Below, in pieces: positions 51,001 through 52,810 of a stretch of DNA of 64,000 nucleotides. A program made the position numbers. Positions within the stretch are counted from its first letter, which is position 1. Each line of letters begins with the position of its first letter. The stretch is from an uncultured cyanobacterium (GTDB taxonomy: Bacteria > Cyanobacteriota > Cyanobacteriia > Cyanobacteriales > CAWCAG01), in the NCBI GenBank assembly GCA_963793425.1, contig CAWCAG010000005.1, forward strand, positions 800,001-864,000, written 5' to 3'.

Positions 51001-52810
51001 TCAACTTGTTGATCTGGAGAACGATATTCGGCCGCAATATCTCTTTTAAAACCAGTAAATAATCTTTCTGTTTGACTCGTTTGCAACCACTGAGATCGCC
51101 CTGCTTCCCCAAATAAGAGGTTGCCATTTTCTTGCACAAATACCAAACTTGGTACAACATTAACAGTACCAGAATCAACCAAAAAACTGCGGGAAATTTC
51201 AGGGAATTGTAGTACTCTGGGAACTTGAGTTGTAGAGTCTTGGAGACAAATGAGAGTATTGCTAGTACCGAAATCAATAGCAACAGTAGTCACTGCATTT
51301 CTTGAAACAGGGGTTTATCAATTCCAGTTTAGATCGTTGTTTGAAGTTTCCGCCAATAATTGATCCCAAATCGGTGTTTAGGAGCACAGATTATTTATGT
51401 AGAAGATTAATTGCTTGAGAGTTGGTTAAATTGAGTAACCTGACATCTCCTAATTCGAGGACTCGTTGAGGAACTTCTTGCTTAACTCCCAAAGCCTCCA
51501 GCACTTGATGCCCTAAAACCCTAGCTAGTAATGGGGGAACAGCATTTCCTACTTGGCGGAAACCGTGCCATTTTGTGCCATGAAGACGGAACCAGTCAGG
51601 AAAAGAATGCAATCGGGCTGCTTCTCTTACTGAGATCACCCTGTGGTATTGGGGATGAAGAGGACGAGGAGAAGTATAGCTACCTCTTTCTGCCCCTGTC
51701 CCTGCTCTTAAAGTGTGACAAGGTTTGTCCCAAACCAATCTTTGTAGATGGCTGATTCTTTCCCTTTTTCCTGGGAGAGTCTGGCAAAAACGGTTGAGAG
51801 AATTTGTCGTATGTTGGGTTTGGCAAGAACTAGTTAACTTAGTTCTGTTCCAGATACGTTTATAAGCAAAATTGTGGGGATCATCAATTATGCCTCGTAG
51901 GATTTTAACATAATTGCTGGCCCCTGCTTCCCAAATTTCCACTTGTTCTGGTTCTAAATCTACCTCATCGCTAGTTCGTAGTTCCAGGAAATCATCAAGA
52001 TTAGGTAAATCAGCGATCGCCTCCTTAACTGTCGTTGGCTGGGGGGTTAATTCTCCTGTAGGATAAGTTAAAGCTGTTTCTCCTCTTCTTGTCCCCAAAA
52101 GAAACAATCGCTGGCGTTCTTGGGGAACTCCGTAGGCAGAGGCGTTAAGTATTTGTATGGGTTCTGCTAACTGATAACCTGCTGCTTTGAACTCTTCTTT
52201 TAGCCCCGTTAAAATGGCAGCATACTTCTTTTGGGTCAAACCAGGAACATTCTCCATAATGAAGTAACGAGGTTGCAGTTCCTTGACTAAACGACAAAAG
52301 TGAAAGATTAAGTTATTGCGCTCATCTTTTAAGTTTCGTTTACCCATCACCGAAAAACCTTGACAAGGTGGCCCACCTATGAGTAAGCCAATTTCTTGGT
52401 TGAGGCTTTTTTCAATCTCTTGCCCAGAAAGAGTCGCAATATCAGCCCATAACACCTTGCTGTCAGGGAAATTAAACTGATGTACAGCCCCATGAACAGG
52501 GTCTTTTTCCACTGCGATCGCAACATCAAATCCTGCTTGTTCAATACCTAAAGAAAATCCCCCAGCACCAGCAAATAAGTCCACTGCTACGGGGCGGCAG
52601 TGAACTTCGGGGGGCTGGATACTGGGAAGATTAAAAGACAAATTACCAAAGGTTGTAACTTGACATGGTTAGATTAGCACAAATGTACTATTTTGAAGTT
52701 AAAGAAATTTTCCTTGGCCCTTGACAAGTTATGTAGTACTCGTGTAGTATTAGAGCAACAAGACAAATCAAACATCTAAAACAACATACTCAAACAACCG
52801 CCTTGGTTAG

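Follow-up and report, generated by a model that had tools for sequence, protein, structure and literature searches.

What does the promoter of a cryptic Ro60/Y RNA locus in an uncultured cyanobacterium respond to, and is the locus switched together with the tRNA island and rtcB of the same genome? A first-pass annotation had answered that the promoter carries operators of the TrcR type. To our knowledge, TrcR has so far been known from one organism, where it keeps a spare-tRNA operon, rtcB and a few further genes off as long as translation is not under stress. Bacterial Ro60/Y-RNA particles are known mainly from Deinococcus, Salmonella and Mycobacterium, and the only well-understood regulation of Ro60 and Y RNAs that we know of is that of the RtcR-dependent Salmonella operon, which also holds rtcB. 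We analyzed a stretch of 64,000 nucleotides, called here the window. The contig offset of 832000 given earlier was wrong; the window is C5:800001-864000, so contig positions are converted to window positions by subtracting 800000. The TrcR regulon and Ro60/Y RNA systems were already known; the sequence adds a candidate TrcR target and what appears to be a divergent variant of the Ro60/Y RNA systems.

Tandem boxes in the promoter of the Ro60/Y RNA locus

The proposed promoter, TTGACA followed by tandem boxes, was present at 52721-52750 on the + strand, and the span first assigned to it, 52700-52770, was right. Its layout is TTGACA-N5-TGTAGTAC-N3-TGTAGTAT, where N5 is agtta and N3 is tcg. The -35 hexamer TTGACA (52721-52726, +), which also stands ahead of the boxes at the genome's own tRNA island and reads TTGACG at rtcB, is separated by an 18-nt spacer from the -10 hexamer TAGTAT (52745-52750, +). 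Box 1, TGTAGTAC (52732-52739, +), lies inside this spacer, and box 2, TGTAGTAT (52743-52750, +), contains the -10 hexamer. With 10 of 12 positions matched, TTGACA-18 nt-TAGTAT was the best sigma-70-like site in 52300-56500. The two boxes are direct repeats 3 nt apart that span the spacer and the -10, and no third box was found over the expected start. A possible third box, TGTACTAT (52684-52691, +), read from the sequence with one mismatch, lies upstream, 29 nt before the -35.

We compared this layout with the TrcR regulon of Anabaena sp. PCC 7120, for which PMC10272220 and PMC8421152 name the trn operon, rtcB/all3526, all8564, rsgA and the rimK operon. The Anabaena trn promoter (NC_003273.1) reads TTGACA-cct-TGTAATAC-atta-TGTAGTAT and has the same layout as the window promoter: the same -35, the first box in the spacer and TGTAGTAT over the -10 TAGTAT. 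Box 2 of the window is identical to the box footprinted with TrcR in that promoter (PMC10272220). The published arrangement (trn and rtcB promoters; PMC8421152) has a pair of direct repeats, spaced by 2-3 nt, that reaches over the -10 and the transcription start, whereas the pair in the window occupies the spacer and the -10, leaving the expected start without a box. The same source reports that two transplanted repeats were enough to make a constitutive promoter trn-like in its regulation, and that extra upstream repeats are known from the trn and all8564 promoters (PMC8421152).

The same operator at rtcB and the tRNA island

We searched both strands of the 5.28-Mb genome with the single-box definition TGTA[GA]TA[TC] (TGTARTAY), which is that of the first-pass annotation. 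Its counts were reproduced exactly: 411 single boxes, three strict tandems and one exact 18-mer before an RHH gene. The strict tandems lie at C2:32472, C5:852732 and C9:703374. When we required TTGAC[AG]-N3-5 ahead of the tandem boxes and allowed these no more than two mismatches, this stricter composite was found four times, at the Ro60/Y-RNA locus, at rtcB, at the tRNA island and at a weak C1 site. The rtcB site, TTGACG-cttt-TGTATTAC-aac-TGTAATAT, lies 34 nt ahead of a 393-aa ORF (Pfam RtcB, E 2.8e-128), and the tRNA-island site, TTGACA-gttt-TGTAGTAT-ttg-TGTAATAT, lies about 134 nt ahead of tRNA-Cys; both operators, read at the sequence level, were as originally described. A weak 18-mer-like site reported before rsfS was also present, with three mismatches. 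The C1 site (C1:147799-147825) has two mismatches and no ORF behind it, and was set aside as probably a chance match. The tRNA island and the Ro60/Y-RNA unit are on different contigs; the island also carries Macro, NADAR and RNA-ligase genes.

Could the repeat have arisen by chance, or as a duplication serving the promoter only, giving two -10-like elements and no repressor site? TAGTAC and TAGTAT both resemble a -10, and AT-rich intergenic DNA raises the frequency of such words. However, none of 100 dinucleotide shuffles of the window yielded a strict tandem, and the three strict tandems in the genome compare with about 0.03 expected (calculated from 411 boxes over 10.6 M strand positions). 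Moreover, the strict composite preceded the module in 25 of 41 loci and gave no match in 450,151 control bases from the same loci, and a chance repeat would also have had to reproduce in box 2 an experimentally footprinted site. We therefore give this explanation hardly any credence.

A single TrcR homologue preceded by the footprinted 18-mer

The genome has a single TrcR homologue, a putative orthologue of All0854, at C5:612251-612583 (-) in its 111-aa form. Its relatives are nearly all 111 aa long, and some are named RHH or CopG; a Pfam scan of the homologue gave no RHH family. Leu44 is present. An HNH endonuclease gene is divergent from the trcR homologue, like alr0856 beside Anabaena all0854. 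The exact footprinted 18-mer occurs once in the genome, at C5:612618-612635 (-), 34 nt before the probable ATG, that is, at -52 to -35, as compared with -53 to -28 for the Anabaena trcR footprint (PMC10272220). The earlier claim of a TrcR orthologue with an autoregulatory 18-mer thus holds up as a putative assignment, with one homologue, an exact 18-mer at -52 to -35 and the divergent HNH gene. The autoregulatory 18-mer at the repressor gene, together with operators at rtcB and at a tRNA island, is a further likeness to the Anabaena regulon. On the trcR strand the 18-mer reads as an inverted pair and on the divergent strand as a direct pair with one mismatch; it may be either.

Conservation of the operator upstream of the module

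Tandem boxes on the sense strand were found upstream of the module (s66, the 66-aa first gene; Y-like RNAs; Ro60-like gene) in 28 of 37 informative loci. The other nine had no tandem at 2-3 nt spacing, and six of these had variant arrangements, which were recognised post hoc. At locus L067 we saw just a weak site, about 600 nt ahead of s66, and no operator was found at L059 or L063. A long tRNA array (at least 8 ARAGORN tRNAs) lies upstream in 11 other loci, with the module as its 3' cargo, and all eight arrays traced to their start open with the operator, in the form TTGAC-N3/4 plus three boxes. The window locus is not array cargo; its promoter stands directly before s66. Every one of the 44 genomes carrying the Ro60-like gene has a TrcR homologue, as compared with 251 of 401 genomes overall; this co-occurrence count overstates independence because the genomes are related.

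Because the module is mobile between genomes and is frequently located behind the promoter of an array, its promoter could have travelled with it. The boxes might then be a fossil of the mobile promoter, unbound or bound by another protein, and the locus would not be co-regulated with rtcB and the tRNA island. This is quite improbable. Both boxes, like the -35 TTGACA, are perfect; chromosomal rtcB and trcR of this genome, which has only one TrcR-family gene, keep the same layout; and the presence of the operator at 28 of 37 loci in many genera argues for selection. Taken together, the elements of the TrcR-operator reading that can be checked in the sequence all held, from the identity of box 2 with the footprinted trn box to the conservation of the module's operator. 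We conclude that the Ro60/Y-RNA module is probably under the same TrcR switch as the spare-tRNA island and rtcB. The word regulon is used here on the strength of sequence and conservation, because TrcR binding, repression and stress induction are themselves inferred.

The unit downstream of the promoter

The promoter probably drives one unit of about 3 kb that comprises s66, four Y-RNA-like RNAs, an L7/L12 paralogue, a 480-aa protein and a terminator. We read this as one transcription unit because every part is on the + strand and the sole terminator-like site follows the last gene; this site, an intrinsic-terminator-like hairpin of 10 pairs with a T run (55724-55758, +), is the only one on the + strand in 52300-56500. 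The first gene, s66 (52817-53017, +), is conserved upstream of the Ro60-like gene and precedes it in 37 of 40 other loci. Its relatives show 80% mean column identity and are always 66 aa long, ending in AVYG. The s66 protein has no Pfam or NCBIfam family, and a fold search in the PDB returned nothing at E <= 0.001. The best PDB rows were ubiquitin-like or PB1 beta-grasp domains (E 0.2-1, TM 0.4-0.54), a lead only. The prediction of a complex between s66 and the Ro60-like protein (score 0.00, mark 0.32) speaks neither for nor against binding. The L7/L12 paralogue (53714-54100, +; 128 aa; Pfam Ribosomal_L12 E 4.1e-22, TIGR00855 E 1.4e-28) is 42% identical to the housekeeping copy at C5:794157-794552 and was found in just 3 of 41 loci. 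The 480-aa protein is encoded at 54274-55716 (+). Neighbours of the unit in the window include a Dcm methylase and MazEF.

The 480-aa protein is a divergent Ro60 homologue

The Pfam TROVE model (PF05731) matched neither the 480-aa protein nor anything else in the genome. In a family of 55 homologues, none matched TROVE and at least 13 matched PF25045 (vWA_Ro60) among the top 10 matches listed. When a profile of the 55 was compared with the PDB, it matched 9nen (9.5e-18), the phage TROVE protein 9l5y and 9kop (1.7e-14, covering residues 23-393), 1yvp (2.5e-13) and 2nvo (6.3e-8). The AlphaFold2 model (pLDDT 92.8) shows an alpha-helical ring and a vWA domain, and the best 11 rows of a Foldseek search with this model were all Ro60 or TROVE. 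Over the full-length predicted fold the protein resembles Ro60/Rsr (1yvp, 2nvo and 9nen, and phage 9l5y and 9kop) with TM 0.62-0.69 and E 2e-11 to 2e-8, and like them it has a vWA domain with a complete MIDAS motif: none of the 55 sequences varies at D303, S305, S307 or D389, and T365 is kept in at least 90% of them. Unlike the solved structures, it has 480 aa instead of about 500-540, shares 13-17% identity with them and has no Pfam TROVE match. The cryptic Ro60 of the first-pass annotation is thus a real Ro60 homologue by profile search and predicted fold. The Ro60-like family has 952 cluster representatives at E <= 0.001, mostly labelled 'vWA domain' or 'hypothetical'.

Four Y-like RNAs on a common scaffold

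Between s66 and the L7/L12 paralogue lie four RNAs on the + strand that share a closing-stem scaffold. Y-like RNAs 1 (53039-53185), 3 (53367-53510) and 4 (53538-53686) carry a permuted tRNA-like insert, with the T-arm preceding the D-arm in RNA 1. RNA 1 scored 34.3 bits and RNA 3 36.5 bits (model positions 1-114) with Rfam YrlA, for which the gathering score is 69, and RNA 4 matched the tRNA model with a long insertion. Y-like RNA 2 (53222-53346) has a tRNA-like body in normal order, called 'tRNA-Leu caa' by ARAGORN, with 50.5 bits for Rfam tRNA. In the class of about 100 nt that includes RNA 2 (35 RNAs), 96.3% of the cells were paired, with compensatory changes in 20 of 27 pairs; none of 500 shuffles reached this pairing and slid controls were at most 52.6% paired. 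The regexes that collected the 35 RNAs fixed parts of the inner stem and left the outer stem and the insert arms free. The RNAs that had been called Y RNAs are therefore structured and Y-RNA-like, and covariation backs a terminal stem with a conserved internal loop, closing off a variable effector module.

In 36 of 41 loci the interval from s66 to the Ro60-like gene holds one to five scaffold RNAs; the window has four. This count uses a scaffold-stem definition, which replaced a first regex for the permuted T-arm/D-arm module that caught 10 of 41 loci. No RNA of the window reached the YrlA gathering score, nor did any in 20 other loci, and 10 loci whose intergenic regions are short gave no YrlA match at E <= 0.05. 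The RNAs nonetheless share several features with bacterial YrlA (RF02553; PMC4201824): a closing stem, interrupted by an internal loop, in which the 5' end pairs with the 3' end, a 3' strand motif ACUUG followed by a stem, which is also in the Rfam YrlA consensus, a tRNA-like insert with the T-arm before the D-arm, and a position adjoining a Ro60 gene. They differ in their scores, below the gathering score of 69, in having one class with a normal-order tRNA-like body and in having sister RNAs with 23S rRNA-like inserts.

Some of these sister scaffold RNAs, at other places, hold 23S rRNA-like inserts instead of tRNA-like ones, apparently either a copy of the helix-69 region or a combined sarcin-ricin-loop and L11/GTPase-centre region. 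The inserts were identified by blastn against the genome's own 23S gene because no local Rfam LSU match was reported for them. In the literature searched, we found no report of 23S rRNA-like inserts on Y-like scaffolds.

A mobile cassette under the same operator?

The Ro60-like gene is patchily distributed (44 of 401 genomes, 33 of 170 genera), and its full-length matches show a nearly uniform 63-70% identity across families. Homologues are also found on a 595-kb uncultured phage record (46.6%) and on a 1.2-Mb Kovacikia plasmid (69%), one s66-like cluster has Uroviricota members, and TrcR homologues occur in two cyanophages according to the Discussion of PMC10272220. This distribution would fit a module that is a mobile cassette for conflict with phages or mobile elements, turned on through a working operator when a phage or a ribotoxin stops translation, with scaffold RNAs that divert or sense the nucleases and modifying enzymes directed against tRNA and rRNA. 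The Dcm methylase and MazEF near the unit, the Macro, NADAR and RNA-ligase genes of the tRNA island and the 23S rRNA-like inserts of some scaffold RNAs point the same way. However, we found no phage or defence hallmark within the unit itself, with PADLOC not searched, and we consider the cassette unlikely, though it is the strongest of the alternatives. It and the explanation that we prefer share the regulatory mechanism and differ in the purpose of the module.

A proposed TrcR-repressed promoter for a probable Ro60/Y-RNA ribonucleoprotein

We prefer the explanation that the promoter is repressed by TrcR, that it is released together with rtcB and the tRNA island, and that the unit encodes a Ro60/Y-RNA ribonucleoprotein; we put the probability of this whole at roughly 0.78. 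In normal growth the single TrcR homologue, an RHH repressor, would sit on both boxes and block RNA polymerase, so that the unit would be silent. When translation elongation is inhibited in Anabaena, the TrcR protein becomes less abundant. The same drop here would open the promoter together with those of rtcB and the tRNA/RNA-repair island, and the released unit of about 3 kb would give the 66-aa protein, four Y-like RNAs, the L7/L12 paralogue and the Ro60 homologue. The product is probably a Ro60/Y-RNA ribonucleoprotein that handles damaged or misfolded translation RNAs.

The target proposed here from the sequence, a Ro60-like/Y-like RNA operon, goes unmentioned in PMC10272220 and PMC8421152 and in those of their supplements that were searched. 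The Anabaena delta-plasmid trn operon ends without a Ro60-like module, and a search of the PCC 7120 plasmids (PLSDB) gave no match to the Ro60-like gene. Among the Anabaena genes more than 8-fold up in the trcR mutant, none is annotated as s66 or a Ro60-like gene, and six hypothetical genes checked in that list were 252-837 nt long, none of them 201 or about 1440 nt. Because no gene of the list fits by annotation or checked length, the only experimentally defined regulon, that of Anabaena, neither includes nor excludes the module.

A close known arrangement is the Salmonella operon rsr-yrlBA-rtcBA under RtcR, which likewise combines Ro60, tRNA-mimicking Y RNAs and RtcB, and which PMC7790460 and PMC4201824 describe as an RNA-repair operon silent in normal growth and induced on damage to the translation apparatus. 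For rtcB, TrcR has already been called functionally equivalent to RtcR by Wang et al. The regulators differ: here a putative RHH repressor would act on sigma-70 promoters, in contrast to a sigma-54 activator with a CARF sensor (PMC7790460, PMC4201824). The genes here have three separate promoters rather than a single operon, the Ro60 is too divergent for Pfam TROVE, and there are four Y-like RNAs and a 66-aa partner gene.

A more far-reaching idea, which we offer tentatively and hold to be possible but somewhat doubtful, is that the TrcR switch governs an unrecognised cyanobacterial Ro60 system whose Y-like scaffold RNAs are a modular display library of translation RNA centres, made only when translation is under attack. 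The variety would come from the inserts: tRNA-like bodies in normal or permuted order, a copy of the 23S helix-69 region, or a combined sarcin-ricin-loop and L11/GTPase-centre region, each on one shared closing stem of the Ro-binding type. Such RNAs might act as bait or decoys to which ribotoxins, RNA-modifying enzymes or translation factors are drawn, or might guide the Ro60-like protein, together with its 66-aa partner and the L7/L12 paralogue, to ribosomes and tRNAs that have been damaged.

TrcR control of the promoter is directly testable with existing Anabaena-type tools. The Ro60 field gains a large unannotated protein family, together with an obligatory small partner and dozens of scaffold RNAs that covary. 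If the promoter is controlled by TrcR, cyanobacteria would have assembled Ro60, tRNA-mimicking RNAs, RtcB and spare tRNAs under a repressor unrelated to RtcR, and this would be independent evidence that these components cooperate on damaged translation RNAs.

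The promoter of the Ro60-like unit

The unit consists of a 66-aa ORF (s66), four Y-like scaffold RNAs, an L7/L12 paralogue and a 480-aa Ro60-like protein. The window spans C5:800001-864000, and subtracting 800000 (not 832000) turns contig coordinates into window positions. At window positions 52721-52750 the + strand in front of it reads TTGACA-agtta-TGTAGTAC-tcg-TGTAGTAT, which bears out the first-pass annotation that TTGACA is followed here by two direct repeats of the 8-nt TrcR-type box, TGTA[GA]TA[TC]. In a simple promoter scan of 52300-56500, the best sigma-70-like site was TTGACA-18 nt-TAGTAT (10/12); with this as the promoter, the -10 hexamer therefore lies inside the second box and the first box in the spacer. 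Upstream of the promoter, beside the start of a divergent Dcm methylase gene, we also noticed an extra TTGACA at 52660-52665 and a one-mismatch box, TGTACTAT, at 52684-52691, possibly an extra upstream repeat comparable to that of the Anabaena trn promoter.

TrcR is a ribbon-helix-helix (RHH) repressor known from Anabaena sp. PCC 7120. Passages of PMC10272220 describe this protein (All0854) as footprinting -53 to -28 of its own gene, over the 18-mer, as protecting, in the trn promoter, the sequence TGTAGTAT that overlaps the -10 TAGTAT, as repressing rtcB, and as dropping in level under chloramphenicol. According to a section of PMC8421152, the trn, all8564, rtcB and dpsA promoters carry two repeats 2-3 nt apart over the -10 region and start site, and two transplanted repeats suffice to confer regulation. 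The Anabaena trn promoter (NC_003273.1) reads TGTAGTAT-gccc-TTGACA-cct-TGTAATAC-atta-TGTAGTAT-ata-TGTAGTGA; its -35 and its -10 box are identical to those of the Ro60-locus promoter, and both promoters carry a first box within the spacer. We consider 52721-52750 to be a TrcR-type repressed promoter with a probability of about 0.78, judged from sequence and conservation.

The box counts claimed previously were exact on recount: 411 single boxes, three strict tandems (C2:32472, the Ro60-locus promoter and C9:703374) and, for the 18-mer ATACTACACTTGTATTAC, a single exact occurrence (C5:612618-612635, minus strand). A chance origin of the boxes is a very unlikely reading: the single-box frequency gives, by arithmetic, an expectation of about 0.03 strict tandems per whole genome, and none appeared in 100 dinucleotide shuffles of the window. 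Tandems numbered 11 with one mismatch allowed, including those at rtcB, in the trcR region and in four copies of a plasmid-like element, and 58 with two mismatches. A composite pattern, TTGAC[AG] placed 3-5 nt upstream of a tandem with at most two mismatches, occurred at four sites in 5.28 Mb: the Ro60 locus, rtcB, the tRNA island on contig C9 and a weak site on C1 without an ORF behind it.

Two other box arrangements were seen. The four repeated-element copies on small contigs (C2:32472, C3:71117, C3:96286 and C6:1652) carry TGTAG[TC]A[CT]-N3-TGTAATAT behind a TTG-type -35, with an ORF of 161 aa (102 aa in C2) starting 111 nt downstream, and are possibly further plasmid-borne regulon members. 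At C7:585174-585193 the pair TGTATTAC-aca-TATAATAC, which can also be read as a tandem from the opposite strand, stands 124 nt upstream of an ORF whose N-terminus looks like that of SmpB.

The TrcR homologue

The genome has a single TrcR-family gene, at C5:612251-612583 (minus strand). The first-pass annotation of a 121-aa RHH orthologue stands as to the homologue and its exact 18-mer; the length of 121 aa is that of the longest ORF. Because nearly all homologues elsewhere have 111 aa, the second ATG is the likely start, and the protein probably has 111 aa as well. From this start the 18-mer falls at -52 to -35, in agreement with the Anabaena footprint. The protein has Leu44, a residue whose substitution makes TrcR lose binding. 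Divergent from trcR (C5:612251-612814 region) lie a small ORF and a gene for an HNH endonuclease, like asr0855-alr0856, which likewise diverge from trcR in Anabaena.

Genes of the unit

All features down to 55758 lie on the + strand, and the only terminator-like hairpin on this strand is behind the last gene. The first, s66 (52817-53017), matches no Pfam or NCBIfam family; of 40 other loci, 37 have it upstream of the Ro60-like gene and in the same orientation, always with 66 aa and a C-terminal AVYG. Its AlphaFold2 model (pLDDT 92.8) has the order beta-beta-alpha-alpha-beta-beta, with weak ubiquitin-like/PB1 fold matches (E >= 0.2), and phage members occur in one s66-related ESM Atlas cluster. 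The L7/L12 paralogue (53714-54100) shares 42% identity with the housekeeping copy (C5:794157-794552); such a divergent second gene was found in just 3 of 41 loci.

The 480-aa protein (54274-55716), the last of the unit, is a divergent Ro60. Pfam gave a sub-threshold VWA_2 alone, and TROVE was absent both from the protein and from the entire genome. The family is large: 2803 of the 8000 candidates scored in the 90% clusters match at E <= 0.001, and there are 952 representatives at 50% identity; members are labelled 'vWA domain-containing' or 'hypothetical'. In a search with a profile built from 55 members, the matches included human RO60 (E 9.5e-18), Xenopus Ro60 (2.5e-13), Deinococcus Rsr (6.3e-8) and, across residues 23-393, a TROVE protein of a phage (1.7e-14); 13 of the 55 match PF25045 vWA_Ro60, and the MIDAS residues are kept. 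The best 11 Foldseek matches of the AlphaFold2 model (pLDDT 92.8, pTM 0.85) are all Ro60 or TROVE structures, aligned at full length with TM 0.62-0.69. Profile matches, MIDAS residues and predicted fold thus uphold the cryptic Ro60 proposed at this locus.

Homologues also occur in a 595-kb uncultured phage record (LR756511.1:285741-287246, 46.6%) and on a 1.2-Mb Kovacikia minuta plasmid (NZ_CP083583.1:1065887-1072213, 69%), in the latter case with a same-strand tRNA array about 4 kb upstream of the gene. Next to the unit (48735-52641 and 55818-56392, both minus strand) are an 852-aa protein that looks from its sequence like an Hsp70-type N-terminal part joined to C-terminal WD40-like repeats, a C-5 cytosine DNA methylase and, converging with the Ro60-like gene, a MazE/MazF-family pair; a 6S RNA lies at 47072-47254 (minus strand; Rfam 90.6 bits).

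The scaffold RNAs

Four structured, Y-RNA-like RNAs lie at about 53039-53185, 53222-53346, 53367-53510 and 53538-53686. One scaffold is common to all four: its outer stem reads CGYRY.../...RYRCG and its inner stem AAGC/GCUUU, its internal loop has CCYRAY on the 5' and AACUUG on the 3' side, and the word UACAYAC is also part of it. Each RNA encloses a tRNA-like insert. Two match Rfam YrlA at 36.5 and 34.3 bits, below the gathering score of 69, and one matches tRNA (50.5 bits), called by ARAGORN as a 73-nt 'tRNA-Leu(caa)'. They resemble bacterial YrlA, as described in parts of PMC4201824, in terminal stem, internal loop, tRNA-like module and adjoining Ro60 gene, but miss the curated Rfam threshold.

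Searching 41 loci with the scaffold words retrieved 97 RNAs ahead of the Ro60-like gene; in 36 of the loci at least one stands between s66 and this gene. For 35 distinct RNAs of the ~100-nt class, RNAalifold gave 27 pairs, 20 with compensatory changes, and 96.3% of cells pair; none of 500 shuffles attained any of five pairing measures, and sliding the partners gave 38-53% pairing. In the collecting regexes the 3' word and portions of the inner stem were preset, whereas the outer stem and the two insert arms, where most double changes lie, were left free.

A second kind of insert resembles 23S rRNA. The scaffold RNA of the tRNA island (C9:705439-705664; L083:4940-5165 in the island sequence) has no tRNA-like insert; 55 nt of its insert are 87% identical to positions 1074-1127 of the genome's own 23S rRNA, and it has the 12-mer AGUACGAGAGGA, unique in the own 23S gene (2592-2603). 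These regions we take to be the L11/GTPase-associated centre and the sarcin-ricin loop, respectively. A homologue at L034:6597-6815, a Ro60-like locus of another genome, follows the Ro60-like gene directly after its own tandem TrcR-type boxes. Seven loci, L034 among them, carry, between s66 and the Ro60-like gene, a ~160-nt scaffold RNA (L034:1984-2143, L047 oriented 2525-2684, L054:2303-2465, L063:3376-3557, L066:2643-2806, L067:1755-1913 and L071:2240-2402) with GUAACUAUAACGGUCCUAAGGUAGCGA-like inserts; over 19-31 nt these match, at 81-100% identity, positions 1845-1878 of the genome's own 23S rRNA, presumably the helix-69 region. Together with the L7/L12 paralogue, these 23S-like inserts suggest that scaffold RNAs may display functional centres of the ribosome.

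Conservation of the operator

Of 401 Cyanobacteriia genomes sampled, 44 (33/170 genera) carry the Ro60-like gene, with 63-70% identity in full-length matches. A less likely rival reading is that the unit is a mobile cassette serving in conflict or defence, which would leave the switch the same and change its purpose. TrcR homologues (E <= 1e-8) turned up in 251 of these 401 genomes, among them every one of the 44 that carry the Ro60-like gene; since the genomes are related, this co-occurrence shows consistency and is no statistical test.

We compared 40 full-length loci, each with 4 kb upstream, counting sense-strand tandems with at most two mismatches and boxes 2-3 nt apart. A tandem precedes the module in 20 loci, nearly always 1-5 nt behind a TTGAC-type -35. 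In 11 loci s66 stands directly behind a long tRNA array (at least eight ARAGORN tRNAs); the array start was fetched for eight, and all eight have TTGAC[AG]-N3/4 followed by three boxes, ~300 nt (100-300 nt) upstream of the first tRNA. With four uninformative loci that end at a contig edge left out, the operator is thus found in 28 of 37 informative loci. A fossil operator, out of use, is an unlikely rival reading, and this count speaks against it.

Variants in the nine remaining loci were recognised post hoc and stand outside the 28: TTGACG-N3-TGTAGTAT-N9-TGTAGTAT (L037, L047), TTGACA-N5 and an inverted pair (L069), a convergent pair behind TTGACG ~1.2 kb upstream (L064, L065), an inverted pair lacking a clear -35 (L034) and a weak site alone (L067); no box arrangement was found upstream of the module in L059 and L063. 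As a fixed-rule control, the composite pattern occurred in the upstream sense strand of 25 of the 41 loci and nowhere in the remaining 450,151 bases of these loci, on either strand.

The predicted regulon

The tRNA island (C9:703364-707700; L083:2865-7186) has only six tRNA genes by ARAGORN. Its order is four tRNAs, a Macro-domain protein, an aspartyl-protease-like protein, two tRNAs, the scaffold RNA, an RNA ligase fused to a tRNA-binding domain and a NADAR protein, which looks like a set for RNA repair and ADP-ribose removal. From the content of the island, rtcB and the Ro60 unit, we predict the regulon of this genome to be an RNA-repair and translation-rescue set.

In the best-supported reading, TrcR bound to the two boxes would sterically repress the sigma-70 promoter. 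Elongation stress would lower TrcR protein and relieve repression, and the Ro60-locus promoter would open jointly with the identically built promoters of rtcB and the tRNA island. The joint TrcR-type control put forward for these three loci is supported as far as sequence and conservation reach.

The Anabaena TrcR regulon has the same operator and a different cargo, whereas Salmonella rsr-yrlBA-rtcBA, as presented in parts of PMC7790460, has the same cast under an unrelated regulator, RtcR. The main text and searchable supplements of PMC10272220 and PMC8421152 (figures and one PMC10272220 supplement excepted) do not mention Ro60, TROVE, vWA or Y RNA, and literature searches on TrcR, cyanobacterial Ro60/Y RNA and tRNA arrays gave no report of a link between TrcR and Ro60/Y RNA. 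Under TrcR-type control, this unit of Ro60 and Y-like RNAs would count both as a new target within known systems and as a divergent variant of them.
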